Shown: in pieces, positions 18,815-36,689 of the stretch
Position numbering within the stretch: the first letter of the stretch is position 1
Layout: every line of letters begins with the position of its first letter
Assembly (NCBI GenBank): GCA_000999595.1
Contig: LCJH01000001.1
Span: forward strand, 1 to 55,815
Direction of reading: 5' to 3'
Length of the DNA: 55,815 nucleotides
From: Microgenomates group bacterium GW2011_GWA2_44_7
GTDB lineage: Bacteria; Patescibacteriota; Microgenomatia; GWA2-44-7
Position numbers and translations under genes: made by a program
The notes under the pieces: model-generated
Told to the model about the DNA's origin: nothing
The model's input: only the letters and a program-made list of their open reading frames with translations
Databases searched by the model: none

Positions 18815-20515
18815 CTAGATTGAGGCAAACTCAAAAGCTACCTCTCCACTTGGAAACACAACTCTATCAATAATTTGCGCATTTGAGGGAATTTCCTTCG
18901 GTGTCCCAATAACCAAAGTCCCAGGTATTTGACTTACCTCCTCCCAAATAATCGGCGCAAAATCAAATTTACCAAAACTCTTCACTGTTGAAAATCCATA
19001 TTTATCTCGTAGAGATAGCACCACTTCCTTTTGAAAAACAGCCGGAGGATATTTTAAGAAAAAAAGCATCTCAATATACGGCTGATCATAAGTATCCGTC
19101 ATGATAACTCTGTTGTAGAAGGGTAGTAGTGGCCCCACTTTTCTCGCTACCTGCTCGAATCCATATTCCCAGGCATCCGGATAAACTTTAGGATAATGAA
19201 TGTAATACTGATTAAGATAATAGCTTACACTCCAACCATAACTCAAAGCGATGCCACCAGCAATCAAGCCATAAAGAAGCGGAAAATTTAATCTGACAGC
19301 CGTTAGCTTCTTCACCAATAAGGTAAACCCGGCTGCCGTAACTAACACTAATGGGATAACCATATTTTGAGCTCTCAACGCATGGGGGGTTTGGAAAGTT
19401 AAAGCCGCCGCCAGAGGCGATACTGCCAACCAATAAAAGACCAACGCAGTTCCTCTACCTCCCTTTTTCACTAATACATATACGCCTAGAAGCAAAATCG
19501 GAATCTCTATCAAATACATCTGGCCCATCTCCGGCACCCTGTTCCTTGGAATAACGTCACCGGAAATAAAGAGGAAATTTCCACTGAAGTGTTCAAGATA
19601 GTTCCTAGCAAATAAACCTGCATAAGCCATCACTTTATTATGTAAAATTTTCACCACCAGACTATCGGCGTTACCATGCTGACCGCGTAACTCATTGACC
19701 CGCCAAATAGGACCCGTGTCAGCCGTTAGACCTACCCCGGAAAACCTGGAAAGTCCACCAGGGCTAAAGACAACCCCAATAAGCGGCAATAGAAGCAAAA
19801 ACCCGAGAGCCGTACTTAGCCAGAACTCTCTCCGAGGCGGCCAAACTTGCTTAAAGAAAATCAGCACCAACCCTAATCCCAATACCGGCGCAATCAAGCG
19901 AGTACTCTGATAGATATACATCGAAAAGACAAAAAAGATGACCGACGATAAAAGAAACATCCGTCGATTCAGCCCCTTTAAAAAAAAGACAACCCCGGCC
20001 AACAGCATCGTTGTCCCAGCATTCGTTTCCCATCCTCCTCTTGAAAAATGGATATGCCAGGGCGAGATCGCCAAAAGTAGGGCTGTCAAAAGTTGGTATC
20101 GCTTATCTGACTTACCGAAAGACAAAACCGCTACTTCACCTGCCAGAACATAAATCAGCCAGACCGAAAGAACTCCCAGTAAAGCAGAAGGAAGCCTAAC
20201 CGCCAAGATATTAAGTCCTATTATCTTAACAAGCGGCACTACCAAATAAAAATATCCGCCTGGTTTGTAATCTCCAAATGACTTAAAAACGATCGGCCAG
20301 GCATTTCCGTGCTCGTCCCTCCCTGTCCGTAAAAGCGAATAGGCATTGTAGCCAATCGCTGCCTCGTCCGCATTAAGACCTGATGGAAATTCATCTAATG
20401 AATAAAGTCGGAGAACGGCAGAAAGAACAAGAATTACGATCAAGATAATCTTCTTTAGAGAAAAATTCATTTTAATCTTATGGCCTCCAATTTTCTGAGA
20501 CCGCGTACCGACCAA
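18815..20515 (-). CDS. GT-C glycosyltransferase, GT39/PMT-ArnT-like (family A, member 1)
   Basis: 566 aa and polytopic. The first loop reads LDEFPSGLNADEAAIGYNAYSLLRTGRDEHGNAWPIVFKSFGDYKPGGYFY, followed by ISPWHIHFSRGGWE. The C-terminus has a soluble domain ending VVFPSGEVAFEFASI. The ORF-track start is TTG; the likely true start is the Met of MNFSLKK (about 20470). Confidence 0.75.
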   Translation of the reverse strand: MVGTRSQKIGGHKIKMNFSLKKIILIVILVLSAVLRLYSLDEFPSGLNADEAAIGYNAYSLLRTGRDEHGNAWPIVFKSFGDYKPGGYFYLVVPLVKIIGLNILAVRLPSALLGVLSVWLIYVLAGEVAVLSFGKSDKRYQLLTALLLAISPWHIHFSRGGWETNAGTTMLLAGVVFFLKGLNRRMFLLSSVIFFVFSMYIYQSTRLIAPVLGLGLVLIFFKQVWPPRREFWLSTALGFLLLLPLIGVVFSPGGLSRFSGVGLTADTGPIWRVNELRGQHGNADSLVVKILHNKVMAYAGLFARNYLEHFSGNFLFISGDVIPRNRVPEMGQMYLIEIPILLLGVYVLVKKGGRGTALVFYWLAVSPLAAALTFQTPHALRAQNMVIPLVLVTAAGFTLLVKKLTAVRLNFPLLYGLIAGGIALSYGWSVSYYLNQYYIHYPKVYPDAWEYGFEQVARKVGPLLPFYNRVIMTDTYDQPYIEMLFFLKYPPAVFQKEVVLSLRDKYGFSTVKSFGKFDFAPIIWEEVSQIPGTLVIGTPKEIPSNAQIIDRVVFPSGEVAFEFASI

Positions 20516-21830
20516 ACAACATCTCTGTTCCGTTATGCCGCGGATTATCAGAATAGCCTACAAAGAACATCGAGGGATTGTGAGGCCCGATCGGTTTTTC
20601 ATAGTAAGTCCTTATTATCCCAAATCCATTACCTTCTCCAACTGGAAAATCGTAAGTAATATTAGGCCGATTATATGGCTTTGCCTTTTCCAAAATATAA
20701 AGAACCGCATCCCGCTGGTGATTGTAACCGAGTGTATCATCATAGGTTACAAGCAAATTAAGAGTCCTGATCATACTAAATATTGCCACTATAAAGAGGG
20801 CCACAATCCCAAACGCGTTCTTGCCTATGGTTAAAGTTAGAATCAAAAAAAGAACAAGTACCGCCGTTGCCAGATAATACTCTGGCCAATGAGAACCTCC
20901 ATAAAAAGAAAAAGCCACTATAGAAAGTGGCACCACAAGCAGCAACATTAAAATTTTTAGATTTCGACTGTTTAAATAAAAAAGGGCAACCAAAAGAAAA
21001 AGAGAAACAAAAAGCTCATAAGGTTCAGCTAAAGGCAGGAAAGAACGAAATTCCCTGGAGAACTGAATCACTGCAAAAACAAATCGGTCGATATAACCGC
21101 TTGAAAGAGAAACACTCTGTCCTGCAAAGTTAAATACCGTAGCAATATTGATGAAATTATGACGAATATCAAAGATAATAAGCGGCGCGAACGGAACCAG
21201 AAAAGCACCTATCACGCTCAATAAACCAACGATCCTTTTCGATTTTTTAATACGAAAGTACTTTATAATGAAAATAGCAAGAACCGGTAAAAAGAAAATA
21301 AACTGAACATGAAAATTAATCCCCATCCCGACAAGAAAGGCCAAAAACAATAACGACTTTAAGCGATAACCCCTGGAAATGACCACCTCAACAATCGCTA
21401 TTACAGCCATCGGATAATACATTACGTTCCAACTCACCCTGTGTAGCTCCGAAACCCAGATTACACCTGCCAAAAATCCCGCGAGCGAAGAGATATGTTT
21501 CCTAATAAAGTAAAAGAGCCACGCGACAATCGCCACATTCACCATTCCCGCAACATACGCCTGGAAGATTGGGTCTGCCCTAAAGGCAAGATAAAAGGGA
21601 ACCAGGAAATAATAATGCCATGGCCCTAGGTGAAAACCGGCCTCAGAAACGACCCGGGGACCGATAAGTACCGGCCTTCTAGTTAGGACCATCTGCTGAA
21701 CTTCCTGATAGTCTCTCTCTTGATCATAGCCAATATGATAGAGGTTCTCCAGTTTATAAAAACTAAAAAACAGACTAATAAGTAAAAGTAATAGTAATAA
21801 GCACACCGAAGAAAAGCGTGTGTTAAACAT
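20478..21830 (-). CDS. GT-C-like polytopic membrane protein, ArnT-like (family C, member 1)
   Basis: 450 aa. The first loop YKLENLYHIGYDQERDYQEVQQMVLTRRPVLIGPRVVSEAGFHLGPWHYY is alignable by eye with 50419..51909 and 51912..53381. Confidence 0.6.
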   Translation of the reverse strand: MFNTRFSSVCLLLLLLLISLFFSFYKLENLYHIGYDQERDYQEVQQMVLTRRPVLIGPRVVSEAGFHLGPWHYYFLVPFYLAFRADPIFQAYVAGMVNVAIVAWLFYFIRKHISSLAGFLAGVIWVSELHRVSWNVMYYPMAVIAIVEVVISRGYRLKSLLFLAFLVGMGINFHVQFIFFLPVLAIFIIKYFRIKKSKRIVGLLSVIGAFLVPFAPLIIFDIRHNFINIATVFNFAGQSVSLSSGYIDRFVFAVIQFSREFRSFLPLAEPYELFVSLFLLVALFYLNSRNLKILMLLLVVPLSIVAFSFYGGSHWPEYYLATAVLVLFLILTLTIGKNAFGIVALFIVAIFSMIRTLNLLVTYDDTLGYNHQRDAVLYILEKAKPYNRPNITYDFPVGEGNGFGIIRTYYEKPIGPHNPSMFFVGYSDNPRHNGTEMLFGRYAVSENWRP

Positions 21831-23514
21831 TTTTGTACGGTCCCATCGATAAGAGATGCCTTCGAAGCATCTTTACTGAAATGACGATAATCAAACCGAG
21901 TGAAATTAATGATAACGAGTTACCAATCCTCTCAATTGGAGTGCTGTTCAGTCGCACCTCGACCAAATGTTTCCCAGGTTGAACCGGAAATCCCAATAAC
22001 CCCCCCGTTCCTATCGGAAATGTCTCCACCGGCTGCCCGTCTACTAACACCTGCCACAATGGAAAATAAAACCTCATCGCCTGCAGTAATTGGGGCGACT
22101 TAGTAGTAACCTCAAAAGTAGTAAGATCTCCAACAGCCCGAAAGTTGACCATTTGATAACCCAAACACGCATCAGCGTTGACACCGCAAGTCTCAGGAAC
22201 TTTATCTACCCAAATAGGAAGTGATTCTCCAGCAACATCGGTAGTCCCATAATAAAGCCCGGTATCATGTACATAATAATCGTCAGAATAGCGAACAGGT
22301 TCAAAAGTTCTCAAATAATTTCTATTTGAATAGAAAGCGACCGCCAAAATAAAAGTAACCAAAACCAATTTTGCCACCTTGCTCCCTACTAAAGAAACAA
22401 CCCACGAAGCCAAAAAGGCGCAGGAGAGAACCGTAACCGCCAGAAACCTCCAAGGGAATTGGACGTGACTAAAGAGAGAAATAAACGCCCAAACGGGTTC
22501 TGATTGGGGCTGCATAAGAAAGACAGTAACCCAAAAAATCCCCAAGAAAAGAAAGGCAGAACGATCTTTTCTTCTCAACTGCTCCCGTAATAATCGATAA
22601 AAAAGACACACAGCACTCATTACCACCACCAGCCACTGAACCCCACCTACCTGAAACGACATTCCATCATTTGGGCCGGGGACCGAATACCAATAGCCCC
22701 AAGACGAATATACAAGCTGTCGAAATGTAGGCCAGTGCTGACGAAAATCAAACACCTCGTGGCGCCCTATATGAATGAGGGGTAACTCTAAAACGGCCGG
22801 GAGAAGAAAAAAGGCCGAAAGACCAATCCCTAATAAAAAACTCGTCCCGAACGGGAGTAGCTTTTCTTTCAAACTCTTTGTTTCCACCAATTTCAACCCA
22901 ATATATAAAGCAAGGGGGATAGCAAATATAACCACACTAATGTTATGGGACGTGATGAGTCCAAACGTTGACAAAGCTATCACCACGAACCCCAAGAAAC
23001 TTTTCTTAACAAGATACCGATCAATACTAGCCAGAAGCAAGGGAACAAAGAAAAAAGCAAGCGTTGCCCCATACTGACCAGTAACATAAAGAGTCCCCAA
23101 CCTATAAGGCGCGTAAAGATAAACTATCGCCCCGATCATCGATGAGACACGTCCAAAATAACCTCTTAACCACCAATACATCGAAAAACCGGATCCCAGA
23201 GTCGCCAGATAAATTACCAACTTCAGGCTTCCTCCGTACGTAAATCTCAAGAAATGAAACAACGATCCCAAATAATAAAAGAGCGGGTAAAAATAGTTAA
23301 AAACAGGAGAGCCAAAACCGTTAGCCATATCCACCGCTATCCGTACAGGAAACTGACCCCTTGAGAGCTCATCATAGAAATGCATTAGACGAACCATATG
23401 GTGAGTCCCATCATGAGTCTTAAAAAATCCAGCTGGCAAAAGGGCTTGCGTAATCGGAACTATGGAAATAAATATCAAGAAAAGCGGGATTAGGTTACGT
23501 ATCTTCTTAACCAT
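21823..23514 (-). CDS. GT-C-like polytopic membrane protein, YfhO-like (family B, member 1)
   Basis: 563 aa. N-terminal loop THDGTHHMVRLMHFYDELSRGQFPVRIAVDMANGFGSPVFNYFYPLFYYL. Mid motif HVQFPWRFL. C-terminal module FYFPLWQVLVDGQPV...PGKHLVEVRL followed by a final helix. Confidence 0.6.
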   Translation of the reverse strand: MVKKIRNLIPLFLIFISIVPITQALLPAGFFKTHDGTHHMVRLMHFYDELSRGQFPVRIAVDMANGFGSPVFNYFYPLFYYLGSLFHFLRFTYGGSLKLVIYLATLGSGFSMYWWLRGYFGRVSSMIGAIVYLYAPYRLGTLYVTGQYGATLAFFFVPLLLASIDRYLVKKSFLGFVVIALSTFGLITSHNISVVIFAIPLALYIGLKLVETKSLKEKLLPFGTSFLLGIGLSAFFLLPAVLELPLIHIGRHEVFDFRQHWPTFRQLVYSSWGYWYSVPGPNDGMSFQVGGVQWLVVVMSAVCLFYRLLREQLRRKDRSAFLFLGIFWVTVFLMQPQSEPVWAFISLFSHVQFPWRFLAVTVLSCAFLASWVVSLVGSKVAKLVLVTFILAVAFYSNRNYLRTFEPVRYSDDYYVHDTGLYYGTTDVAGESLPIWVDKVPETCGVNADACLGYQMVNFRAVGDLTTFEVTTKSPQLLQAMRFYFPLWQVLVDGQPVETFPIGTGGLLGFPVQPGKHLVEVRLNSTPIERIGNSLSLISLGLIIVISVKMLRRHLLSMGPYKNV

Positions 23515-25179
23515 TTAATATGTCTTGACAATTCGGAATACGACCGAGCCATCAGGTCGGCGAATATTGTTAACAGCGACTGCTTGCTTACGATCGATAT
23601 CTTTGAGAGGAAGCTCCTCTTCTGTCCCCACGAAAAACGTCCCTTTTATTCCTCTGTCGCTCGGCCAATAAAGATTTCGGAAGTTGTAGTTCTCAAATTT
23701 GTGGACTTCTCCCACATCGCCATTTGGACTTGCTATCAATTTTGCTTGAGATTGGTAGCTAACTGGATCGACTCTATTGTAGAAAAGTACATAGATATAC
23801 GGTTGGCCCATCTTCTGAGTAAAGAAAACCGGACGGTTCTCAAGATTTTCTTGATTCAACAATTCAACCGCTTCCTTGTAACCGTAAAGCCGTTGATCTG
23901 AGAAAGTGACGGGAGCGTGCACGAAATAACTATCAAGATAATAACTTATTCCCCACAAATAAGTGACCGTAATGGCAGCAATTAGAGAGACGCTAAGTAA
24001 TAAAGATCTGCGTCTTATGAATAAGAGCAACGAATTTGTCCCCAGACTTGCTATTAATATTAATGGAATAACAAAGTTTATTGATCGCACTGCCGTGACG
24101 ACATCACGCGAAAGGGCGGCCGGCAAAGGAGAAATAACCAACCAATAAAGTAGAAAACCTTTGGCAGGAATCTCCGGCCGACGGATCAAAAAAGCAAAAC
24201 CAATAATTAGTAAAAGAAGGTCCGGCCAATAAAACTGTCCGGAATAAGGACTACCTAAACGGGCATTTGTCCAATCCCCTTCAAAAAAAAGAAACCGCCC
24301 GGAAAAATAACTAAAATAGCCCTCCAAGAAACGCCTCGTGCTATTTAGCCATTCACCGTGGAAGAATAAAAACTGTAATGAGTTTATAGTGGTTCCCTCT
24401 CTGGCGGCAATCGAGACGGCTTCTCCTACCGATCGCTGATAGGCAAAGACGTTATACACCATTAGCCTCCCACTGGTGCCCTGCGCGAATAATAGGATTA
24501 AAGCCAGAAATAAAGCGAAGATCGTTGAGCCGGTTAAAAAAGAAGGATTATTTCGCCACTTAATTTGTTTTCGAAAACATACTAGTAAGCCGACGACAAC
24601 TAAGGGTGTAATAATTTTGGCACTTTGATAAGTAAAAAATGTCAGACCGAAGGCTAGACCCGCAATTATCAAATAACGGCTTGATTTCCTTCCTTTTAAG
24701 AATGTCAGTATTCCCAATAGCGTGAGCATTAAGTTCATATTTGCTTCCCAAGCTCCTCGGGAGAAATGTATAAGCCAAGGATTGATGGCGGTTATTAACG
24801 CCGCAAACACCCCAATCGTTTTATTTTTTTGATCAAATAACTCACTTACCAAAAGATAGACCAAGCCAATAATAGCCACTCCTGAAACAGCCGAGGGTAG
24901 CTTAACGCTAAACTCATTTAAACCAAATAAGCCCACCGGGAGAACGGCGGCGTAGGCATAAAGGGCGGGTTTATAGTCTCCGAAGGATTTAAGTATCAAA
25001 GGCATAAAAATGCCATATTCATCCTTTCCTGTTTTCAAAATCGAATATGCATTATAGCCAAGGGCGGCTTCATCCCAAAGTAAAGGCCGACCATCAACTC
25101 CTAAACGCCAAACACGCAACGTCGCACCAAGCCCCATGATAACAATTAGGATTACTAGCGCCATATATTTAGTATTCAT
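23515..25179 (-). CDS. GT-C glycosyltransferase, GT39/PMT-ArnT-like (family A, member 2)
   Basis: 554 aa with LLWDEAALGYNAYSILKTGKDEYGIFMPLILKSFGDYKPALYAY and INPWLIHFSRGAWE. C-terminus ends IRRPDGSVVFRIVKTY. Confidence 0.75.
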   Translation of the reverse strand: MNTKYMALVILIVIMGLGATLRVWRLGVDGRPLLWDEAALGYNAYSILKTGKDEYGIFMPLILKSFGDYKPALYAYAAVLPVGLFGLNEFSVKLPSAVSGVAIIGLVYLLVSELFDQKNKTIGVFAALITAINPWLIHFSRGAWEANMNLMLTLLGILTFLKGRKSSRYLIIAGLAFGLTFFTYQSAKIITPLVVVGLLVCFRKQIKWRNNPSFLTGSTIFALFLALILLFAQGTSGRLMVYNVFAYQRSVGEAVSIAAREGTTINSLQFLFFHGEWLNSTRRFLEGYFSYFSGRFLFFEGDWTNARLGSPYSGQFYWPDLLLLIIGFAFLIRRPEIPAKGFLLYWLVISPLPAALSRDVVTAVRSINFVIPLILIASLGTNSLLLFIRRRSLLLSVSLIAAITVTYLWGISYYLDSYFVHAPVTFSDQRLYGYKEAVELLNQENLENRPVFFTQKMGQPYIYVLFYNRVDPVSYQSQAKLIASPNGDVGEVHKFENYNFRNLYWPSDRGIKGTFFVGTEEELPLKDIDRKQAVAVNNIRRPDGSVVFRIVKTY

Positions 25180-25195
25180 TTTTTATTATTTGCTA

Positions 25196-26995
25196 TTAAA
25201 TTCTTGATCGAACTTTATTAAATGTATAGCTTAGATTTTCAAAGAAACTCCCGGGATTAAAGTAAGTAGTATAGGAAAGACTCCCGGGGATATTTTTGCC
25301 ATTGATATAAAGACCTTCCCCACTTCTGCTATCGTATGGAACAGCGATATTTGTTCCTTCAGTGACGGGTGGTGCCCCAGGAGAGGTGATAATTAACGAA
25401 TAACGATGCGTGGCCGACTGTCTAATCTGCTTGAAAACTAATTTCAGATTGAAGTCATCCCCAATTGCTCCTCCGTTTATCTTAAAGGTTTGCGTCATAC
25501 CGCCATCTTTATCTGTCAGTGTAAAATAGACATCAGCTTTGCTTTTCAGTCCAATGTTTTTTATCATCACTTGGAGTCCCTTGAAATTATTATGGGTGAC
25601 TATGAAGTCCTGTTGAACAGTCGTCTCTCGACTTAAGACAACTGATTCTCTTTGGGAAAGGGTCTCAAAATCTATATACATCCCTTTAACGGTCAACCAA
25701 CTATGCAACAGAATTACCAAACCTCCGATACTGATAGCCAAAAGCGAGATAAGCTTTAAAATTCCTATAGGCGGGGTGGCCGGGAATTGATAGTTTGGCT
25801 TGATGGTTTTTATTATTTCAATTACAAACCAAAGCATGCAGGCCAAAAATACCGCATGAAAGAAGCCTTGGAGCTGGCTGCCGACCCCAAATAAGTCAAC
25901 CGCTTGACGGACACTGGGAAGCGAGATTAGGGCTTCATTAGTTGGACTAAATAAAGCAAAGGTCATATAAGTGTCGCTGATCAGAAAAACCGTGGCAAAG
26001 TAGGCAACCATTGATAACAAAGCGACCCTCCAATTTACCCAGCCCTTGATCGTGAGCAGCAATAGAAACGGCATTAACCATAGCATCCACTGGGGGTGAA
26101 AATTGTTTAAACCAAAATAAACGCCAAAAATGGCCAGAGGTATAACTGCCAACGGAGTTTTTTTTAAAAGGCCAAGGGTCGTTAAAATTAGCATTAATCC
26201 ATAAAATACACCATAGATAGGTAAATGTTCATTGTTGCCGATATCAAAGCCTGTTTTTGTTAGCCCGGTCGTTAAATTTGACAGCAGTATAGAACTTAGG
26301 GCTTCTCTTGAGAGCAAAATCGGGATAAAACTTAAGACCAAAGTTAAAATGGCAATAGTTAAGTCTCTCGTCTTTAGCAGTAGCCGACGATTGTCAAGTA
26401 ACCACCAAAAAGGAATAAGTAATAATGGAAAGAGTTTGAAACCAGCACCCGCGCCGAGCATAATATAAGACAAAGTCTTTTTTCTTCCAAAACATATTAC
26501 CGAGGCCAGTGTCAGGCTGGTCGGAACGACATCAAAATGAGAGGTACCATAAATTGCGTAAAGCGAGAACGGGTTGAAAAGCCAAATAAGGGCAGTTTGT
26601 TTCTTCTGATCATCTGAAACTGACCTTAATAATAACCAGGCGATAACTAGATCCGTGATGATGATTGGCATTTTCATCAGAAGTAAATCTCGATAGATCC
26701 CTCGATAATTCCCTACCCGAAGATCAAGACTCTCAATCCAGCCGTTAAAGTTGGGAGTAAATAAAAAACTCCCGATCTTTTGATAGGTAGCGAACAGCAG
26801 GTAAACAGGCGGTGGGTAATGCAAGGGAGTATTTTCTTTTACGCCAACCTCGTAGCCTTTAACCCAACCATATTTAGAAATTAGCGTTGCTTCGTGATAA
26901 ATACCCTTAAGATCAGGGTGATATAAAAAAGACGATAGCAGGATTCGCAAAATAACGGCCAGACCGACAAATTTTAACCACCAATGGTCTTTCAC
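25196..26995 (-). CDS. GT-C-like membrane protein, DUF2029/GT87-Gpi18-like (family D, member 1) with a C-terminal extracytoplasmic domain
   Basis: 599 aa. N-terminus FLYHPDLKGIYHEA...LHYPPPVYLLFA, then about 12 helices. After the last helix comes a non-membrane, beta-rich tail of about 150 aa (...FKGLQVMIKNIGLKSKADVYFTLTDKDGG...YSLIITSPG...). Confidence 0.55.
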   Translation of the reverse strand: MKDHWWLKFVGLAVILRILLSSFLYHPDLKGIYHEATLISKYGWVKGYEVGVKENTPLHYPPPVYLLFATYQKIGSFLFTPNFNGWIESLDLRVGNYRGIYRDLLLMKMPIIITDLVIAWLLLRSVSDDQKKQTALIWLFNPFSLYAIYGTSHFDVVPTSLTLASVICFGRKKTLSYIMLGAGAGFKLFPLLLIPFWWLLDNRRLLLKTRDLTIAILTLVLSFIPILLSREALSSILLSNLTTGLTKTGFDIGNNEHLPIYGVFYGLMLILTTLGLLKKTPLAVIPLAIFGVYFGLNNFHPQWMLWLMPFLLLLTIKGWVNWRVALLSMVAYFATVFLISDTYMTFALFSPTNEALISLPSVRQAVDLFGVGSQLQGFFHAVFLACMLWFVIEIIKTIKPNYQFPATPPIGILKLISLLAISIGGLVILLHSWLTVKGMYIDFETLSQRESVVLSRETTVQQDFIVTHNNFKGLQVMIKNIGLKSKADVYFTLTDKDGGMTQTFKINGGAIGDDFNLKLVFKQIRQSATHRYSLIITSPGAPPVTEGTNIAVPYDSRSGEGLYINGKNIPGSLSYTTYFNPGSFFENLSYTFNKVRSRI

Positions 26996-28773: not shown

Positions 28774-30391
28774 AGAGAGAGATCATATCAAGGATTAGTT
28801 TAAAGTCCGTCTCTTTGAACTTTATTTGGACATTGTGCTGACCCGCCGGAATCAGAAGACTGAGCTGCCCGAAAGGTCTTCCTGCACCAAGGGTGGTTTG
28901 ATTGCCATCAATGTAAGCTTTCCATCCGGGGAAGGTGTATCGACGAATGTTTAATATAAATGGGAAAGGGGAATTGGTTTCAACAGATACGTTAAGAAGT
29001 TGGTCCCCGTTTATCTGCTCCACCCCTTCGTTTGCAAAGAAGAGTTGATAATTTCTGTCAGGTCGAACGTCAGTTAATTTTAATAACCTCAGATACTCCT
29101 CTTTTGTTAATTTATATTCTTCACTTGCTTTGGGCATTGGAATATAGCGATTTAAATAATAGTCATCACCCCTTGAAAGAAAGTCATGGGGCCTAAATAA
29201 CTGATAGGTTGTTAAAATCGCTGATATAATTAATACTAACGGAATAACTTTGTGAGGAATCTGTGAAAGCGGAATAAGGAGAAACGGAAATAAAAGAGTC
29301 GTCAGCATCAAGAATCTCCAAGGAAATTGGAAATAAGGTAAGAATGGTAGAGATTTCCAAATAATATCTGACCGAAAGTTCATCATGAATATTGATAAGG
29401 CAATAGAAATTAATGCCCAAAGGTACAACATATTTCTATCGCCGCTTATTTGCTTATATCGCCGAATAAAGAAAACTGATGAAAAAATTAACAGAATAAT
29501 CCCTAAAGTCCCCAGGTAATATGATTGATTGCCGTATGGATCGGGGGCGGCAAGTTTGGAAGTAGAATAAGGCGCAAGAAGTTGCAACAAACTGGGAAAA
29601 TGATCAACATAGTTATAGACCGTATCATATTTGACTAACTGACTATCCAGAATGGCAGGAAGCCAAAAATACACCGCTCCCGCCAAGCCCAAAACAAACA
29701 TGAACATGACTTTAACTGCCTGGCGAAAAATGTCCGTTGGGTTAGAAAGTATCCGGATGGTAGAGAATAGGATTAGAAGTGGTACAAACATGTAGGCGGC
29801 AATGTTATGGGATAGGATAAGGCCTGCAAGGCCAAGGGATCCGACACCATACCACCGGCGGTGACATACCCTGCAAACTGTCAATTGATAGACTGCAAGT
29901 AAGACAAGCGGAAAGAAAATAAAGGCAACTGATTCACCTATATCGCCTCTGTAGTAGATATCGATGGCTCGATAAGGAGTATAAATATAGATTACGCCCC
30001 CAACTACTGCGTATATTCGGCCTAATATTTGCCTTAACAGCCAATACATCGCTAGGCCAGACAATACGATGCTCAAACCGAAAACAATCTTGGTACTTGC
30101 GACCAGCGAAAAGCCGATAAAATAAAATAACGCCCCTAGGTAGTACGGGAACGGAAATACAAAATTGAAAAGCGGATACCCGAACCCAAAACTTAAATCC
30201 GGTACGTATCTGGGCGGGAATTGACCGTTTTTGAGCGTTTGGGTCATTTCATAGAGCCAGGCGATATGGATATCATCGGATGCCCCGTAAAACCCACTTG
30301 CCGTAAGGGCGTAGACCGTGGGAATGGAGAAAATAATTATTAAAATTAACGGGTGGAAAATGGGGTTGATTTTTTTAAACACTTTTAGCAT
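28721..30391 (-). CDS. GT-C-like polytopic membrane protein, YfhO-like (family B, member 2)
   Basis: 556 aa with GASDDIHIAWLYEMTQTLKNGQFPPRYVPDLSFGFGYPLFNFVFPFPYYL and YFQFPWRFL. C-terminal module YTFPGWKAYIDGNQT...PAGQHNVQIKF plus a terminal helix. Confidence 0.65.
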   Translation of the reverse strand: MLKVFKKINPIFHPLILIIIFSIPTVYALTASGFYGASDDIHIAWLYEMTQTLKNGQFPPRYVPDLSFGFGYPLFNFVFPFPYYLGALFYFIGFSLVASTKIVFGLSIVLSGLAMYWLLRQILGRIYAVVGGVIYIYTPYRAIDIYYRGDIGESVAFIFFPLVLLAVYQLTVCRVCHRRWYGVGSLGLAGLILSHNIAAYMFVPLLILFSTIRILSNPTDIFRQAVKVMFMFVLGLAGAVYFWLPAILDSQLVKYDTVYNYVDHFPSLLQLLAPYSTSKLAAPDPYGNQSYYLGTLGIILLIFSSVFFIRRYKQISGDRNMLYLWALISIALSIFMMNFRSDIIWKSLPFLPYFQFPWRFLMLTTLLFPFLLIPLSQIPHKVIPLVLIISAILTTYQLFRPHDFLSRGDDYYLNRYIPMPKASEEYKLTKEEYLRLLKLTDVRPDRNYQLFFANEGVEQINGDQLLNVSVETNSPFPFILNIRRYTFPGWKAYIDGNQTTLGAGRPFGQLSLLIPAGQHNVQIKFKETDFKLILDMISLFAMGLSLVFILDSRKNV

Positions 30392-32174
30392 AACCTCTGC
30401 TTGATTTAACTTCGGAAGCCATCAAAACTGCAAGTATGGGAATTACCGATGAAAAACTTAGCAAGGTAAAAATATTAGCAAAGGTCCTAAGGGGTGTATT
30501 TTCTAACTTAATCTTTATGGTGTGTCTACCCTCGTTAGGGATTGAAAAATTGATAAGACCGAGACAAAAAGGCAGTCCGCTACAATCATTATTGAGATGT
30601 TGGACAAAAGAATCGTCTACATAGACAGACATACCGGGAAAGTCGTAAAGAGGCACTCTTAATTTAACTGCCGACTTTACCAGTATTACGCCTTCTTGAA
30701 AATCACTGCCTTTATTATAACTTTCAATTACGGCTTCTCCACTTAAGACCTCGGGATAGTCAGGAGCTTTGGTTGTCGGTGGGAACTGGGCGTAAATCGG
30801 CAGATAATCAAAAATACTTGAGGTTAATTGTTTCTCCCAGATGACACCTGATAATTTTTCTTTATCAGTAATCCTCAACCAATCCTTGGGTTTAAAGAAA
30901 TTTCCGTACAAAGACCAGGCGGCTAGCAACAAAAAAAGGGTTGCAAAAAGAGTAAATTTTCCCCTTGGGCACAAAAAGATCCCCACAGCTGCCAGAAAAG
31001 AGAGCAAGAATATTGCTGGTCCTAAGAACCGCCAAGGAAATTGCAAGTAGGCCAAGAAGTTAATCGTTTCCCAAATAAATGAAGATTTCTGATGAACCAT
31101 AAATAAAATCCCCAGAGCAAGACCCACTAGCAAGATAGCTAGCTTTGCGATAAATACGTTTCTCTTAATTGAAAATAAAGCTAGGACAAGTGCACCAAGA
31201 GCAGCGATCCAATGCACAATTCCGACAGAAAGTGAAAGGTTATCTGTTTGTCCCAGATTAGAAGATCCATATCCCCAACGGTTTGAAAAAAATAGCCCTC
31301 CTAAACTTACAAAATGTTGACGATAATCAAAATAGCCCCCAATTAACGTTTCGGTGTGAACATATCCTTTTTCGACTATGGCCGGGATAATAAAAAATGC
31401 AGCCATTCCAACAGCTAAGATAAAACTGGCAACAAACTTGGGTAGTCTTTTAAACTCTCTGAAAAAGATCGCCAAAGCAAAAATCCACACGGCCAAGACG
31501 GGTAAAAAGATTACTGACATCGGAATATGGGTTAACAAAAGAAGAGAAATAACTATGGCTAAGAAAAGGTAATTACTTCTTTGGCCATTCTTAACTGCCC
31601 GAAATGAATAGAGAAATAATAAGGGGAAGAGAGCCAACGCCCAAGATTCACTTAGAGCCCCCCGAACGTAGACTTCAACCGCCCTAAAGGGTGCGTAGAC
31701 ATAGAGTAAGCTCCCCGTATAAGCCGGCAGCAAACCAAAGAAATCCCTTAAGAGGAAAAACATCGTCACGCCTGAGGCAATAAATCCCAAGATAAACAAC
31801 AATTTAACCGTATCGATAATTTGGAAACCACTAATCTTTAAGACCGCCCCAAGATAGTAAAGGCTTGGCGGGTAATAATTGAACATCGGATAGCCATAGC
31901 CATAGCCTCCATCAGGGATCCACCGACAAGGTAGTTGCCGATCCTCCAGGCATTTGACCATTTGGTGAAGCCTAAATGCTTGTTGGTCATCTTGCATAGA
32001 AAAATAACCGGCTCTTAACAAAGAACTGAAAGACGGAACGATAAATATGATTAGCAAAAATAGTTGTAAAAGAATAGAAGACCTAAAACTTGTTAACCCT
32101 TTTTTAAAGAAAGAATGCATTTGCTTTTGTGCTTCCTGGTCTTGCCAATATAAATTACAAAACGCCCAGTCCAC
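30375..32174 (-). CDS. GT-C-like polytopic membrane protein, YfhO-like (family B, member 3)
   Basis: 599 aa with SMQDDQQAFRLHQMVKCLEDRQLPCRWIPDGGYGYGYPMFNYYPPSLYYL and YLQFPWRFL. C-terminal module LYDFPGMSVYVDDS...EGRHTIKIKL plus a terminal helix. The start may be the internal Met of MHSFFKK (about 32120). Confidence 0.65.
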   Translation of the reverse strand: MDWAFCNLYWQDQEAQKQMHSFFKKGLTSFRSSILLQLFLLIIFIVPSFSSLLRAGYFSMQDDQQAFRLHQMVKCLEDRQLPCRWIPDGGYGYGYPMFNYYPPSLYYLGAVLKISGFQIIDTVKLLFILGFIASGVTMFFLLRDFFGLLPAYTGSLLYVYAPFRAVEVYVRGALSESWALALFPLLFLYSFRAVKNGQRSNYLFLAIVISLLLLTHIPMSVIFLPVLAVWIFALAIFFREFKRLPKFVASFILAVGMAAFFIIPAIVEKGYVHTETLIGGYFDYRQHFVSLGGLFFSNRWGYGSSNLGQTDNLSLSVGIVHWIAALGALVLALFSIKRNVFIAKLAILLVGLALGILFMVHQKSSFIWETINFLAYLQFPWRFLGPAIFLLSFLAAVGIFLCPRGKFTLFATLFLLLAAWSLYGNFFKPKDWLRITDKEKLSGVIWEKQLTSSIFDYLPIYAQFPPTTKAPDYPEVLSGEAVIESYNKGSDFQEGVILVKSAVKLRVPLYDFPGMSVYVDDSFVQHLNNDCSGLPFCLGLINFSIPNEGRHTIKIKLENTPLRTFANIFTLLSFSSVIPILAVLMASEVKSSRGYAKSV

Positions 32175-33776
32175 TTTTACTTATTCTAATGGCTGGTTTG
32201 CCGTCTGGATAATTTATTTGCTTAAGGATATTTTTGTCCAGAGGCAACTCTTCCTCTTTCCCTACAAGTAATATGTTGTCGCCACGGGAGTCACTCGGGT
32301 AGTTTATTCGTCTAAACTCATATTTGCCGAGTGAATATTCTCCGAGTTGGTCTACAAATTTTAAGCCGCTTATCTCATATTGCAGCCATTTCTTTGATTG
32401 TTGCTGAAAAAATACCGGATCCTCCTTTAAAAAGAAACCGATGAAGATTTGAGGCTCACTAAATTCGTGACTAACAATAATTTTTTCATAATTTGGGCTT
32501 ACTAGACCAAGATATTGTGCTGCTTTATCCCAACCGTAGCTCATATGCGGGGCAACGACGATTGGGCTATGATAAAAATATCGATCTACAAATGAAGTTA
32601 GGCTGGCGATAACGATAACGGTAATCGCAAGAATGTTTAGATTTTTGCCTAAGACTTGAGACAGTTTATAAAATAAACTTATACCACCAAAGGCAGATAA
32701 AATTTGAATAAAAGGCATCATAATGGCAAGCCTATTGGCAGCCAATCCCGGACCTTTTGTTAAAGCGGCAGGAATAGGAGTAATAAGAATAAGTGCTACC
32801 AAGATCCAAAAGGGATAGGTTTTGATTAGCCCAAGTTTAGTGATTTTGAAAATTGCAGATACAAGAAATGCCAATTCGAAGAGATAGAGAACTCCGATCC
32901 CCGGGGCCATCCCATAAGTTGCTTCACCCGGACCTTGGGTAAACAAGAATTGGACAGAAAAATATGATAAATAATTTCCGATAAACAGTGAACCTATATA
33001 AGTCAATTTATTCCAAAACAATTTACCAAGTAGGGCCGGCTCACCTAGTAGAGCTCCGTCGTATCGAAGATCAAAGGCTGCCTGCCATCCCCCAGTCGGA
33101 CTAAAAATGGCTACATCTGCAGCACGGGTACTGGCACCGAAGAAAGTTGTCCCAAGGGCGACTAGTAGAAAGATAGAGAATATGCCTAACGAAAAGAGGT
33201 AGCGAGAAAGAATTATTTTTAAATTAAACCTCTGAAAAAACTGTCGATGAGCAAAAAATAGTAAAGTTATGGCACTAGCGGGATAAAAAAGGATGGTAGA
33301 TTTGCCTCAAATGCACCCCTTGATAGTTGGACATGCCACGGGCTGATCGCCAGCAGCAAGGCAGCTACTAAGCCAATAACATTGCCATTTAGCCAAACTT
33401 TCTCTTTTAATTTCGGCATCGACATGGCAGTATGGTCAAAAAGCGAAATGACAAGCAGGTAAGTAATCAGTACCGTGAGGGTTCCTAATATCGCGGCCGG
33501 CAAACGGGTCGCAAAAACATTAAGTCCGAATAGCGCAATTGATGGAACCGTCAGGTAGGTGTAAAGCGGGGCTTTATAATCACCAAATGTTCGGGGAGAT
33601 AACGGTAATGTCTCTCCCCACTCATCCTTCCCTGTTTGTAAAAGAGAGTATGCACTGTAGCCTTGATTGGCCTCGTCAGCATTAAACCCGGCAGGATATC
33701 GATCCAACGCACCCAGCCGGAGTATCAAAGCCAACACTATAATTGTCCCCAGAAAAATTCGACTTCTAGATATCAT
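32155..33776 (-). pseudogene. Frameshifted GT39/PMT-ArnT-like GT-C gene (family A, member 4), given as two ORFs in the track
   Basis: ORF 33267..33776 carries the family A N-terminus: FNADEANQGYSAYSLLQTGKDEWGETLPLSPRTFGDYKAPLYTY and ISPWHVQLSRGAFE. ORF 32155..33021 carries the C-terminal two thirds, ending INYPDGKPAIRISK. My reading shows the C-terminal frame stays open upstream to about 33300 (STILFYPASAITLLFFAHRQFF...LGKLFWNKLTY). Adding one base in the A run at about 33285-33290 (plus strand) fuses the two parts into a protein of about 540 aa. Confidence 0.65.
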
Positions 33777-35425
33777 TTTCTTTTTAGTACTTGCATTAAA
33801 GGTTGAGAATATTCTGGATCTTTAATTACCTTAATTAACTCAAAGTTGCTGGTTGCATTTAATACCCAATTTCCCGGAATATCTCTTCCTTGAACAGTCA
33901 GAAAAGTCATTCCGGGCTTCAGAAAATCTTCCAACGCAACTTTGTTATTTAGGTTCCCGAAAAATAAATCCGGTCCGACTCTAAAGCCGTCCAAGCCAGG
34001 AATGACATCGCTGGTAAACTTATCGCCTGTAAAGTTTGCCTGAAACCAACGAGGATCGGTCTTGGACCAAAAAAGATATCTTATTAATGCCGGCTCACCT
34101 TTATAGCTGATTACCTTTATCTTTGGCTCGGTGGACAGTGCTTGGATTGCCTCTTTATACCCATATTGCCAAGCTCGCCATGATTCAAAGCGATAATGAA
34201 AAATAGTATGGTGTCCAAAGAATATAATCTCTGTAATAAATGCAGCCAGAACAATAAAAACGGCGAGAGTCTTTTGGTAGCTTGGCTTAAAAAAATCATA
34301 AATCGCCCAAAACCCGACTGCCGAGGACACCACCAACGGAGGTAACATTAAAAACAATCTGGTTGCATGTTCCCCACCACCGATAGTCACGGAAGATGAT
34401 AACGGAGCAAGTAATAACCACCCAAGAAATAGTTGCGAATATTGTCGCTTCCGCCGGGCTACTAATATCCCGACACCAACCAGACTCAAAAGATACTCCG
34501 CATGAAATAATTCACCGAAACCGCCGCCGATTTCAGAGTGAGTTGGGTTTGGATCTCCATCTAGGGCCAAAAACTGCGGAGAGAAACTTTTAAGATAATT
34601 GGACGTTATCTCACGAAGAATAACCGTCGGCTTATTATGAAAAAGGCTTCCGACAATGCCATTTTCATCAATGCTTCGTTTGGTTGAAATCTCCTTTTCG
34701 AGGCCAGGTAACGCTAAAAGACTGACCGTCCCCACTCGTTCGCGTGGTTGCCCTAAACCACCAAAAAACAGTAAAAACCCGCTGGCGACTATTACAAGAA
34801 AAATAGATGTTTTAGTCTTTATCTCAATTATGTTAGGCTTAAATACAAAAAATATTAGAAGACCCAAAAAAGGCGAAAAACTTAACGCCGAGCTATAGGT
34901 AAAGAGGCTCAGGCTTAGGAAAATCATTGAGACAACGATGAACCACCATCGCCGGTTTTGGTTGATCCAAAACCAAACCGATAGCAAAACGAAAAGCAAA
35001 AGCAAGCTAACTTCAAAACCTGCCCGACTATAATGCCAGTGCCACGGTGTCACGGCCAAAAGGAGAGAAGAAGATATTGCTGTTCGTTCATCTGTAAGTT
35101 TGTTGACTATTAAGAATAGTATGAGAATGCTTAACGTCCCCCAAAGTGCCGGAGCGATCCTTACCCCCCACTCATTTAAGCCAAAAATGGCAACTGTGGG
35201 CACGAGTGAATAGATAAACATTGGAGAACGATTTTCTGGAAAGGAATGAAAATTGATTGGAAGAGAATGACCCAGATAATCCTTACCGGTTTTTAAGATA
35301 GAATAAGCTTGATACCCGGCGTCAAGTTCATCCCCAAAGAGCTCTATCGGTAATTTATCTAAGCCCCAGACCCGTATCAGCAGTGCAAAAAGGAGAATTA
35401 ACCCGACCTTAAGTTTTAGTAGCAT
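33773..35425 (-). CDS. GT-C glycosyltransferase, GT39/PMT-ArnT-like (family A, member 5, most divergent)
   Basis: 550 aa with LFGDELDAGYQAYSILKTGKDYLGHSLPINFHSFPENRSPMFIY and VTPWHWHYSRAGFE. It has a 4 nt overlap with the downstream gene. Confidence 0.7.
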   Translation of the reverse strand: MLLKLKVGLILLFALLIRVWGLDKLPIELFGDELDAGYQAYSILKTGKDYLGHSLPINFHSFPENRSPMFIYSLVPTVAIFGLNEWGVRIAPALWGTLSILILFLIVNKLTDERTAISSSLLLAVTPWHWHYSRAGFEVSLLLLFVLLSVWFWINQNRRWWFIVVSMIFLSLSLFTYSSALSFSPFLGLLIFFVFKPNIIEIKTKTSIFLVIVASGFLLFFGGLGQPRERVGTVSLLALPGLEKEISTKRSIDENGIVGSLFHNKPTVILREITSNYLKSFSPQFLALDGDPNPTHSEIGGGFGELFHAEYLLSLVGVGILVARRKRQYSQLFLGWLLLAPLSSSVTIGGGEHATRLFLMLPPLVVSSAVGFWAIYDFFKPSYQKTLAVFIVLAAFITEIIFFGHHTIFHYRFESWRAWQYGYKEAIQALSTEPKIKVISYKGEPALIRYLFWSKTDPRWFQANFTGDKFTSDVIPGLDGFRVGPDLFFGNLNNKVALEDFLKPGMTFLTVQGRDIPGNWVLNATSNFELIKVIKDPEYSQPLMQVLKRK

Positions 35426-36689
35426 TCTTGGTCCATTTTATCAAAAGCATTAGATAAATTCCCAATGCTAATACAGTTAATATTTTAATGCCTAATTCAA
35501 AAGATAATAGTTGGATTAACCAAAAAATATTAGGCTCCCACCAATTGTGGTAGAGATTTATCAAGTGAAAACCTGATAGGTATAAATAGCCTAATATAAT
35601 TAGCCGGTTCCACTTGCCCCAAGGTAACAAAAATAAAATAAGTGCCGGGCCTAGATATCTTTCGTGCATTCTCGTTGCCAGAAAAAAGGTGGAAAGAAGA
35701 ATGAGAATCCAGGCTTTCCAAAGATAGTCGATGGTGGCCATTTTTTTCGTGTTTATTAAAAGCCAGATGCCTGCCGCACCAACGAAGATGGATCCGTAAG
35801 TGCTATACGGAATTCCGAATAACCAGCCCAAGGAGTCAGGAATTTTACTTGATCCGACTACTAAAAACCAAAAATTGAATGCATGGTCAGTCACATAATC
35901 AGATCCCGATCCGGTGCTTAACTTCTCCATAAATATTCTAAATGGCCAAAATAAATCAAAAATATTGTTAAAGGGCAAGAAGACCAAAAGAAAGATTAAA
36001 AGTTGCAAGAGTAAAGCTTTTATGGACACGAAAAACCCTTTTTTACTAAACAAATACGCGAAGAAGAAGGGAAGAAATATAATAGCGGATTGTTTGGTTA
36101 GAATTGCCAGAGTAACTGAAATAGATGAAAGCAAAAATCGTTCTTCAAGTAGAAAGAGCGATCCTAAGAGAAGAAAGAAGATAGGAATACTTTCTATCTG
36201 GCCCCAGGCAGCGCTATTAAACCAAATGGCAGGGTTAAAAAGAGCGAGCAAAAAAACAGAGATGGATTTGTTGATAGATTTCGTTTGGCGTATCGTAATT
36301 TGATAAAGCAAAACAGCAATCCCGATATCTGCCAAGATAGATGGCAATTTAAAGAAAGCCGGTAAAAAGTTGGGGTGACCAGAGCTAATTACCCAGTCAG
36401 TAAACAATGAGGGCGCCAAGCGGCCTACGGTGTATATAATTCGAATCGTTTGTAAATATATTTCGTAGCTGATTGCAAATAATGAAATGGCGATCGGCGG
36501 ATAGGTGGGGGGCATAACTTTATATTTTTCAGTAAATTCTCGTTCATAAATTCCTTGGATACCAAACATGGTAATTTCCTTACCCCAGGCAATGTGGTTA
36601 TTTACATCGCCGCTATAAAGCCTGACAGAGATAAATAGCCTCATCAAAATAGCCAGCAATAAAATTAAAGCGAACAAGCTACTTTTCAT
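35409..36689 (-). CDS. GT-C-like membrane protein, DUF2029/GT87-Gpi18-like (family D, member 2)
   Basis: 426 aa with no large soluble domain. N-terminus RLYSGDVNNHIAWGKEI...MPPTYPPIAISLFA, then about 11 helices. Confidence 0.55.
   Translation of the reverse strand: MKSSLFALILLLAILMRLFISVRLYSGDVNNHIAWGKEITMFGIQGIYEREFTEKYKVMPPTYPPIAISLFAISYEIYLQTIRIIYTVGRLAPSLFTDWVISSGHPNFLPAFFKLPSILADIGIAVLLYQITIRQTKSINKSISVFLLALFNPAIWFNSAAWGQIESIPIFFLLLGSLFLLEERFLLSSISVTLAILTKQSAIIFLPFFFAYLFSKKGFFVSIKALLLQLLIFLLVFLPFNNIFDLFWPFRIFMEKLSTGSGSDYVTDHAFNFWFLVVGSSKIPDSLGWLFGIPYSTYGSIFVGAAGIWLLINTKKMATIDYLWKAWILILLSTFFLATRMHERYLGPALILFLLPWGKWNRLIILGYLYLSGFHLINLYHNWWEPNIFWLIQLLSFELGIKILTVLALGIYLMLLIKWTKNATKT

Follow-up and report, generated by a model that had tools for sequence, protein, structure and literature searches.

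Eleven consecutive GT-C-type glycosyltransferase genes, with largely conserved order in related lineages, in a glycosylation island of a Microgenomates group bacterium

Introduction

Tiny genomes and a presumed life in attachment to other cells characterise the bacteria of the candidate phyla radiation (CPR, Patescibacteria), whose surface chemistry is almost unknown. The present work deals with a stretch of 55,815 nucleotides (nt) from an uncultured groundwater organism, Microgenomates group bacterium GW2011_GWA2_44_7 (assembly GCA_000999595.1, contig LCJH01000001.1, positions 1 to 55,815), hereafter called the window, and more particularly with a run of eleven genes between positions 36689 and 18815 of its minus strand, which encode polytopic membrane proteins of the glycosyltransferase C type (GT-C). 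An earlier note, made from the sequence alone, had described these genes as an array drawn from four sequence families, A to D, and had proposed that it serves many distinct sugar-transfer steps on the outer face of the membrane, either for one highly branched glycan or for many acceptor specificities. We report here on the identity of the encoded proteins, on their relatives in other genomes and on what the array may assemble.

Results

Organisation of the eleven-gene run

The unbroken succession of eleven GT-C-type genes, with nothing else between them, was found both in the list of open reading frames (ORFs) and by hydropathy analysis. Read from 36689 down to 18815, the minus strand holds eleven consecutive polytopic ORFs, tightly packed and uninterrupted, and the list contains no plus-strand ORF of at least 150 amino acids (aa) within 18815-36689. 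Neighbouring genes are spaced by -53 to +80 nt, and most pairs overlap. A Kyte-Doolittle scan, which is crude and undercounts transmembrane helices, detected between 6 and 12 hydrophobic segments in every one of the ten intact ORFs and 4-5 in each fragment of the one gene that is split in the window (see below).

In the order of reading, the run opens with a gene of a subfamily called d here, related to ALG6/GT57 and Gpi18 (35409-36689, 426 aa). It is followed by two genes of family A, which is PMT_2/ArnT-like (33773-35425, 550 aa, and 32155-33776, 577 aa when intact), two of family B, of the YfhO/PTPS_related type (30375-32174, 599 aa, and 28721-30391, 556 aa), another of family A (27076-28773, 565 aa) and a family D gene of the GT87/PIG-M-like type, whose product bears a C-terminal extension of about 200 aa (25196-26995, 599 aa). 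Further members of family A (23515-25179, 554 aa) and family B (21823-23514, 563 aa), the only family C gene of the run, which is divergent and PMT_2-like (20478-21830, 450 aa), and a last family A gene (18815-20515, 566 aa) complete it. Genes are designated below by their lower coordinate, except for the 577-aa gene.

We infer that the eleven genes, which are co-directional, are probably co-transcribed; a promoter and terminator scan of positions 18000-37800 was uninformative, as counts were at the level of shuffled sequence. The AT skew of the plus strand is strongly positive across the run (up to +0.23 within positions 18000-36000). This is not a replication signal and agrees with a use of T-rich codons for hydrophobic residues on the minus strand, which is the coding one.

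The gene at 32155-33776 had been treated as a single one, which is true of sibling assemblies. In the window itself, a stop near 33267 and a subsequent frame break leave two fragments, at 33267-33776 (169 aa) and 32155-33021 (288 aa). Sibling contigs were present in public assemblies, mainly from Rifle-aquifer groundwater metagenomes, with 99.97-100% identity to the window over the aligned flanks, and four of these assemblies (L001, L002, L004 and L005) hold 112 additional nt between window positions 33274 and 33275 and an intact gene of 577 aa. Two more genes are broken in the same way: a GT4 gene (359 aa in the siblings), which lacks 112 nt at 40183/40184, and a PMT-like GT-C gene (503 aa in the siblings), which lacks 118 nt at 48640/48641. 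Pseudogenisation of these three genes was rejected, since the siblings carry 112-118 extra bases at those exact points. Intact siblings and near-equal sizes suggest assembly gaps, and more precisely scaffold gaps that were collapsed or removed, so that the eleven-gene run is real in the population.

Assignment of the four families to the GT-C type

The proposal that these proteins are GT-C enzymes rather than transporters withstood profile searches, structural comparison and the examination of first-loop acidic residues. Pfam matches above the gathering score were obtained for six of the eleven genes, and an NCBIfam scan of all eleven gave weak, sub-threshold resemblances only (Agl23, AZOBR_p60025).

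In family A, PMT_2 (PF13231, cut-off 26.1 bits) was matched by 18815 (29.6 bits), 23515 (46.9 bits) and 33773 (53.5 bits), and by the N-terminal fragment of the 577-aa gene (30.2 bits). The remaining member, 27076, misses the PMT_2 cut-off and shows a sub-threshold match to PMT (PF02366, 19.8 bits for a cut-off of 22.7), and it is 29-30% identical to the other family A members over its full length. When a family A profile built from 45 sequences was compared with the Protein Data Bank (PDB), ArnT (5ezm) was the sole solved relative (E 2.4e-6), and no eukaryotic PMT chain was matched. The earlier description of family A as GT39/PMT-like thus stands as far as a PMT_2/ArnT-like family is meant, and fails for GT39 PMT in the strict sense: 'PMT_2/ArnT-like' is the more accurate label, because none of the family A proteins of the run reached the PF02366 cut-off, no MIR domain was found in the Pfam scans and no eukaryotic PMT chain was retrieved.

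These same results bear on a different function for family A, namely that its members are protein O-glycosyltransferases in the PMT sense, mannosylating Ser/Thr residues of secreted or surface proteins, with paralogs dedicated to individual substrates. An Asp-Glu pair in loop 1 is known from eukaryotic PMTs. Family A indeed displays an invariant DE pair at this place, together with its Pfam matches to PMT_2 and PMT, and a GT39 enzyme of Caldicellulosiruptor bescii is reported to be needed for protein glycosylation, and bacterial PMT homologs to perform protein O-mannosylation (PMC6151902, PMC11727336). However, the single solved relative is a lipid A-modifying enzyme of family GT83, the hallmarks of PMT listed above are absent from the members in the run, and the island contains no candidate gene for a Ser/Thr-rich substrate. 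We therefore consider this function improbable.

Family B was recognised by two Pfam families: 21823 matched YfhO (PF09586) at 29.9 bits (cut-off 28.5), and 28721 and 30375 matched PTPS_related (PF10131) at 33.5 and 53.1 bits (cut-off 26.4). YfhO is genetically required for the glycosylation of lipoteichoic acid and was proposed to be a GT-C enzyme (PMC5836110). In the hydropathy scan, the last hydrophobic segment of the family B proteins lies within residues 527-568 and comes only after some 130-170 residues without such a segment, and a beta-rich segment occupies residues 481-556 in a low-confidence model. That AlphaFold2 (AF2) model of 30375, computed from the four window paralogs only, was poor (predicted local distance difference test, pLDDT, 53.7); its Foldseek matches, the top eleven of which were STT3 with a template-modelling (TM) score of only about 0.2, were unusable and were not counted. 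Family B profiles gave no match among PDB sequences.

The family C protein 20478 has no direct Pfam match, its homologs carry PF13231, one of them, from Shapirobacteria, is named GT39, and the family C profile matches PIG-M at 1e-4. As for 25196, which likewise has no direct Pfam match, its profile matches PIG-M (GPI mannosyltransferase 1) at 2.7e-12 and GT87 is matched by 16 of the 21 aligned members of its family, so that its GT87/PIG-M (GT50)-like membership (PF09594 / PF05007, solved PIG-M) is attested through the profile and through family members.

Structural evidence was clearest for 35409. Its profile matches yeast ALG6 (6snh) with an E-value of 9.8e-12 across residues 8-386, and its AF2 model is confident (pLDDT 94.4, predicted TM score 0.93, about 12 long helices). 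ALG6 again ranks first among the Foldseek matches of this model (E 3.1e-8, TM 0.67). Only GT-C proteins occupy the first 22 places, among them, after ALG6, ArnT, PIG-U, ALG3, ALG9, PimE, PIG-M, STT3, ALG12 and DPY19; transporters appear in the list only at E > 1 with TM of about 0.15. The predicted model thus shows a GT-C fold for 35409. Some of its homologs carry Alg6_Alg8 (PF03155), which 35409 itself does not match, and we file the protein as ALG6-like on the basis of profile and model, not as a GT57 member.

That the eleven genes encode transporters or other polytopic membrane proteins, clustered by chance, is hardly credible in view of these data. Three of the eleven (20478, 25196 and 35409) lack a direct Pfam match, and the model of family B is unreliable, which would leave room for such an explanation. 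Yet profile, profile-profile and structural evidence all give GT-C, the transporters retrieved by Foldseek are noise, first-loop acidic residues are invariant and the surrounding 55 kb consist almost wholly of glycosyltransferase genes. For families A, C and D this alternative is rejected, and for family B it is improbable.

Conservation of the first-loop acidic motif

The earlier note had singled out an acidic residue in the first predicted extracytoplasmic loop as a feature of every member, and quoted motifs that were all found again: DE...GYNAYS..TG.DE in family A, DQERD...LIGP in family C and HPD...YPP in family D. Conservation was measured in alignments of homologs taken from 77 related loci, which comprise family D homologs with their 10-kb flanks and thus form a sample centred on family D. 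An Asp or Glu of the first loop is 98-100% conserved in every family, with 26-177 homologs in each: D36/E37 in family A (99%, n=177), D62 in family B (98%, n=50), D36 in family C (100%, n=26), D28 in family D as represented by 25196 (100%, n=75) and D28 in subfamily d as represented by 35409 (100%, n=26). H26 of 25196 is conserved together with D28 (99-100%, n=75). These motifs lie 5-15 residues past the first hydrophobic segment, and D28 of 35409 directly follows the first transmembrane helix (model helices 3-21 and 28-42).

D28 of 35409 is aligned with the Asp of the 'GDFEAQRHW' motif of ALG6, at position 87 of the deposited chain of 562 aa. We take native ALG6 to be 544 aa long, which leaves 18 extra residues in that chain. 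If these residues are N-terminal, the aligned Asp would be D69, the catalytic base of ALG6 (PMC12653191).

Relationships among the families

All-versus-all BLASTP reproduced the grouping into families A to D without any change of assignment. Family A comprises 18815, 23515, 27076, 33773 and the 577-aa gene (32155-33776), with weak links to 51912 and 48585 elsewhere in the window. Family B comprises 21823, 28721 and 30375, joined by 46573 outside the run, and family C comprises 20478, joined by 50419 and 51912. Family D unites 25196, a weakly linked 35409 and, outside the run, 38426; the grouping as such was recovered, but it is made of two subfamilies, one GT87/PIG-M-like (25196, D in what follows) and one ALG6-like (35409, d).

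Profile-profile comparison, using family alignments drawn from the 77 loci, gave hhalign probabilities of 98.9% for A-C, 97.1% for A-d, 96.8% for B-C, 94.6% for B-d and 99.9% for D-d. The A-B probability was 95.7% (with tool-made alignments), and the 'DD' motif of family B falls on the 'DE' motif of family A. By profile comparison, the families are all distant homologs of one another across an N-terminal module of about 170-190 residues.

Within-family paralogs of the window are only 24-35% identical, and a repeat search found no DNA-level repeats among them. The low identity and the lack of such repeats indicate that the copies are old, and the latter rules out recent tandem duplication or gene conversion.

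Orthologs and gene order in related genomes

The same array was to be sought in related genomes, and consecutive runs of 5-11 genes of the same GT-C families are indeed common in the 77 loci. Relatives of 25196 in species-representative genomes come overwhelmingly from Microgenomates-group Patescibacteria (Shapiro-, Ames-, Woese- and Blackburnbacteria), and the best GTDB relatives are only 38% identical to it. Many third-party metagenome-assembled genomes (MAGs) that contain these clusters are titled 'uncultured Gammaproteobacteria', 'Pseudomonadales' or 'Clostridia' (among loci L007-L083); we suspect taxonomic mislabels in the source records, because these MAGs hold the same Microgenomates-type clusters.

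Gene-by-gene best matches revealed a similar order, d(35409)-D-A(33773)-A(577)-B-(B)-A(27076)-A(23515)-A(18815), in loci L047, L065 (Blackburnbacteria) and L049, and the part from D or A(33773) to A(18815) recurs in L010 and L026 (Shapirobacteria) and also in L034. The E-values of these matches range from about 1e-50 to 1e-177, those of the orthologs of 28721 in L047, L010 and L024 from 1e-146 to 1e-167, and ortholog-like matches are 38-49% identical by BLASTP. The adjacency of 27076 and 23515 is found in 14 loci and that of 35409 and 33773 in 10. Individual genes are widespread: 33773 has 28 ortholog-like matches in 27 related loci, and 27076 has such matches in 23. Orthologs of the 577-aa gene reach 51% identity in the family alignment (in L047; 48% by BLASTP), and the closest relatives of 18815 elsewhere reach 53% (49% by BLASTP). 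For every family A paralog, the family alignment contains 18-46 sequences of other genomes that resemble it more closely than any paralog of the window does; the best of them are 39-53% identical to it, versus 29-34% for the nearest window paralog.

Altogether, nine of the eleven run genes have their own orthologs in other Microgenomates lineages. From these comparisons the array is judged ancient, and not a recent amplification, because most of its paralogs have their own orthologs, 38-53% identical and in similar order, in related Shapiro-, Ames- and Blackburnbacteria.

The surrounding glycosylation island

Almost the whole window is one minus-strand glycosylation island. Apart from the run and the other polytopic genes, it contains 17 GT2 genes, 3 GT4 genes and 3 S-adenosylmethionine (SAM) methyltransferase genes (384, 6516 and 10885). 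At the right end, the island begins directly after housekeeping genes (trmD, tsaD/E, ftsEX and a release factor gene). Beyond the left end it extends over another 8 kb at least, where it holds three more methyltransferase genes, a GT2 gene, a GT4 gene and the gene of a 1066-aa polytopic protein (L091:14826-18026), so that the whole island measures at least 63 kb. This last protein, whose first loop contains a 'GMRDDW' motif and whose central part is a large extracytoplasmic domain, is only weakly family-B-like (hhalign 83%).

The first island gene, at 54244-55374 (minus strand, as are the following ones unless stated otherwise), encodes a GT2 domain fused to a GtrA/DPMS transmembrane domain (Glycos_transf_2 + GtrA_DPMS_TM) and is a candidate polyprenyl-phosphate sugar synthase. 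BLASTP places it in a GT2 subgroup of four paralogs with two ArnC/PgfS/DPM1-like genes, 53385-54122 and 49654-50400, both candidate lipid-sugar synthases, and with 15990-16811, a Pfam GT2 protein of this ArnC/DPM1-like group that matches 53385 at 1e-20, 49654 at 4e-16 and 54244 at 2e-14. The best NCBIfam resemblances of 49654, 53385 and 54244 included ArnC, PgfS, PpgS, AglJ and dolichyl-phosphate hexose transferase, with scores that fall well short of the curated cut-offs: ArnC came top for 49654, and PgfS, ArnC, PpgS and AglJ were the best, all sub-cut-off, for 54244. The four paralogs are natural candidates for the synthesis of polyprenyl-phosphate sugar donors. A natural fusion of a GT2 domain with a 35409-type GT-C domain (P0066, 692 aa), and an ORF of the same length and best match in Blackburnbacteria (L065:7920-9998, 692 aa), hint at a functional link of the Rosetta-stone kind between 35409-type GT-Cs and Leloir-type GT2 enzymes.

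A candidate flippase of the Wzx type (MOP family; Polysacc_synt_3, 151.9 bits) is encoded at 45009-46517. It adjoins 43322-45028, the gene of a 568-aa polytopic protein of a further family, F, which is probably GT-C-related: this protein has no Pfam or PDB sequence match, and its hhalign probability to family A is 96.6% over 402 columns. An N-terminal 'GPNGHDxxWH' motif is invariant in family F, for which 1167 representative relatives were found. In seven larger ones that were inspected (about 1020-1170 aa), an unrecognised secreted domain ('IVNPVRGxEFW') makes up the N-terminal 430-590 aa or so, and one of 1639 aa is fused to a Wzx-type domain, most fused relatives carrying the secreted domain instead of the flippase. 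Ortholog-like matches of 43322 occur in 19 related loci, and the F gene recurs in L010 and L026 with a row of smaller, unidentified upstream ORFs.

The earlier note had counted seven more GT-C-like genes in the window, and the same number was obtained here (1144, 38426, 43322, 46573, 48259-49652, 50419 and 51912), with weak evidence for 1144. GT-C identity is well supported for 38426, 46573, 48259-49652, 50419 and 51912. The family D gene 38426-39700 (424 aa) matches 25196 at 1e-19 by BLASTP and has ortholog-like matches in 23 loci; the family B gene 46573-48258 (561 aa) matches PTPS_related at 40.4 bits and its product is 35% identical to 30375; 48259-49652, split by the 118-nt gap mentioned above, matches PMT at 34.0 bits; and the two family C/PMT_2-like genes at 50419-53381 (496 and 489 aa) are both linked to 20478 by BLASTP, 51912 matching PMT_2 at 50.6 bits. 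In the product of 1144-3381 (745 aa), an extracytoplasmic domain of about 190 aa at the N terminus precedes some 13 hydrophobic segments; the PMT_2 match of this protein is sub-threshold (24.3 versus 26.1 bits), its hhalign links are weak, and its GT-C status is uncertain. Overall, about half of the 55.8 kb is taken up by polytopic GT-C-like genes, which number some 18 and are well supported in 16 cases.

Only two genes of the island lie on the plus strand (12677-14938). Their products are an FAD/NAD-binding oxidoreductase and a B12-binding radical-SAM enzyme, which possibly serve in sugar modification such as C-methylation, beside the three SAM methyltransferases listed above. A tRNA scan found no tRNA gene, and there is thus no sign of a tRNA-targeted mobile island. 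One contig (L086, ERZ505139 NODE_684, coverage about 1) matches the island from its right end to window position of about 41298 and then carries unrelated genes, including an IS110-family transposase gene; the contig represents either a strain variant in which the island is truncated or a chimera of low coverage.

Discussion

This work indicates that the array may carry out the stepwise extracytoplasmic assembly of one complex glycan from polyprenyl-phosphate sugars, a reading to which we give a probability of roughly 0.55. A lipid-linked precursor would be made in the cytoplasm by the GT2 and GT4 enzymes of the flanking genes, and the four ArnC/PgfS/DPM1-like GT2 enzymes, including the one fused to a GtrA-type membrane domain, would load polyprenyl phosphate with single sugars. 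A flippase would carry the lipid-linked sugars to the outer leaflet, where each GT-C enzyme, by means of its first-loop Asp/Glu, would move one sugar from a polyprenyl-phosphate sugar to a defined position of the growing glycan. The GT-C paralogs would then represent successive, non-redundant steps of a single assembly line, and the product would be a complex, probably methylated, envelope glycan. Functional analogies would be found in the lumenal ALG steps by which eukaryotes make N-glycans and in the GT-C steps that lead to lipomannan, lipoarabinomannan and arabinogalactan in mycobacteria. We infer the type of donor, the flipping, the sequential action and the nature of the product; the use of polyprenyl-phosphate donors is suggested, indirectly, by the ArnC/PgfS/DPM1-like GT2 enzymes, the GtrA fusion and the Wzx-like gene of the island. 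Such a scheme follows the established model of multi-component transmembrane glycosylation, in which a GT-A enzyme loads polyprenyl phosphate, a flippase acts and a GT-C enzyme transfers the sugar outside (PMC8035078, PMC5836110).

One stepwise assembly line is favoured since the paralogs are ancient, individually conserved and similarly ordered. Between the two outcomes proposed in the earlier note, orthology and gene order accordingly favour a single highly elaborated glycan over many acceptor specificities. The main rival reading, close to the second of these outcomes, is that the GT-Cs are decorators of the end stage, each independent of the others, as in GtrABC or CsbB-GtcA-YfhO. Each would attach a side-chain sugar to a different acceptor (such as teichoic-acid-like polymers, S-layer, pilins or lipids) or at a different site, with few shared donors and without any stepwise glycan. 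Characterised bacterial GT-Cs of the YfhO/GtlB and GtrC types are all post-polymerisation decorators (PMC8035078, PMC5836110, PMC11127046), a ratio of about four ArnC/DPM1-like synthases to about 18 GT-Cs is what shared donors would lead one to expect, and a modular gain and loss of genes is suggested by the behaviour of three members of the run (see below). However, ancient one-to-one orthologs, kept in similar order and orientation across several candidate lineages, are more typical of one pathway, the genes overlap or abut in operon fashion, and the 17 GT2 genes, 3 GT4 genes and Wzx-like gene imply that a dedicated backbone is made by the island as well. Independent decoration appears to us less probable on balance.

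Several points weigh against the assembly of a single glycan. Acceptor, product and donor sugar cannot be read from the sequence, and none of the genes in the window was identified as that of an initiating phosphoglycosyltransferase, an oligosaccharyltransferase, a ligase or an LCP-type ligase. Candidate lipid-sugar synthases number only about 4 for about 18 GT-Cs, and all of them lie far below the NCBIfam equivalog cut-offs. For family B, which has no solved structural relative and only a poor model, the fold is assigned from Pfam and profile comparison. The synteny sample is itself biased, as it was collected around family D homologs with 10-kb flanks. Within that sample of 77 loci, 21823 (family B) and 20478 (family C) have no ortholog-like match, and 25196 is relocated between 27076 and 23515, unlike its position in relatives; the line-up is therefore not rigid, and these traits look like features particular to the lineage of the window. 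Conserved synteny is, lastly, also compatible with decoration enzymes that are co-regulated and independent of one another.

A wider proposal can be formulated around stepwise assembly, which we put forward tentatively, as possible rather than probable. Microgenomates-group CPR bacteria would share an ancient, operon-encoded, extracytoplasmic assembly line, comparable to the ALG pathway of the endoplasmic reticulum (ER) or to that of mycobacterial lipoarabinomannan, in which at least ten different GT-Cs each take one specific sugar from a polyprenyl-phosphate donor and add it to a single lipid- or wall-linked, lineage-defining glycan; this would perhaps be the densest GT-C pathway described, and its product could replace polymers of the teichoic-acid or lipopolysaccharide type and mediate the attachment of these episymbionts to the host. 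The array and its conserved orthologs imply, at any rate, a large, conserved, presumably important and undescribed surface glycan. They constitute a good lead for the biology of the CPR envelope and for GT-C evolution, as defined orthogroups, invariant catalytic residues and a confident ALG6-like model offer targets for expression in heterologous hosts, for analysing the glycans of enrichments and for studies of how lumenal and extracytoplasmic GT-C pathways evolved.

Comparison with known systems

A search of the literature on CPR, Patescibacteria or Microgenomates and GT-C-type glycosyltransferases found no such array, its incomplete coverage making this an absence of evidence only. Four known systems can nevertheless be compared with it. 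With three-component transmembrane glycosylation (GtrA/B/C, CsbB-GtcA-YfhO and GacI/J/K/L; PMC8035078, PMC5836110, PMC11127046), the island shares the list of parts, that is GT2 candidate synthases, a GtrA-type domain, a Wzx-type flippase candidate and GT-Cs with an acidic first-loop motif, and its family B falls into the same Pfam families (YfhO and PTPS_related). In those systems, however, one synthase serves each GT-C and a polymer made elsewhere is decorated, whereas eleven contiguous GT-Cs from four or five families are found here, and the window holds synthases, flippases and GT-Cs in a ratio of about 4 : 1-2 : 18, the role of the synthases being attributed on sub-threshold resemblance.

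Family A can be set beside ArnT (GT83) and the bacterial PMT_2 proteins known as 'GT39-like', with which it shares PF13231, the match to 5ezm, an N-terminal acidic motif and a C-terminal extracytoplasmic domain. It differs from ArnT by its own signature (DE-x3-GYNAYS-x3-TG-x-DE-x-G...FGDYK) and by the presence of five to six diverged paralogs per genome, and its match to ArnT extends over about 160 residues only.

Mycobacteria and corynebacteria likewise possess many distinct GT-Cs (PimE, GT87 mannosyltransferases, Emb/Aft arabinosyltransferases and Pmt), and the GT-Cs of the window would, as they do, work one after another on the outer side of the membrane, with polyprenyl-phosphate sugars as donors, to make a large branched glycan. 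A resemblance is also seen in family D, which is GT87/PIG-M-like, and in the structural matches of 35409, which include PimE, but no Emb/Aft-type family was detected and the organism is phylogenetically unrelated. Mycobacterial GT-C genes are, moreover, largely dispersed in a 4.4-Mb genome, in contrast with the one operon-like run in a small CPR genome.

As regards the eukaryotic ALG pathway of the ER lumen (ALG3/9/12/6/8/10), 35409 is closest to ALG6 by both profile and fold, with its Asp aligned (PMC12653191), and 25196 matches the glycosylphosphatidylinositol (GPI) mannosyltransferases (PIG-M/Gpi14). The logic would also be shared, with cytoplasmic Leloir steps, flipping and GT-C steps from lipid-phosphate sugars. 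Identity to the ALG and GPI enzymes is nonetheless only 14-18%, no oligosaccharyltransferase of the STT3/PglB type was identified, and the bacterial genes form a cluster, unlike their eukaryotic counterparts. Neither the enzyme families nor the general mechanism are new, and the array is an unusual deployment of them rather than a new mechanism; what appears to be undescribed is its scale and organisation, with eleven contiguous GT-C genes, about 18 in 55.8 kb, and an order largely conserved across a major CPR lineage.

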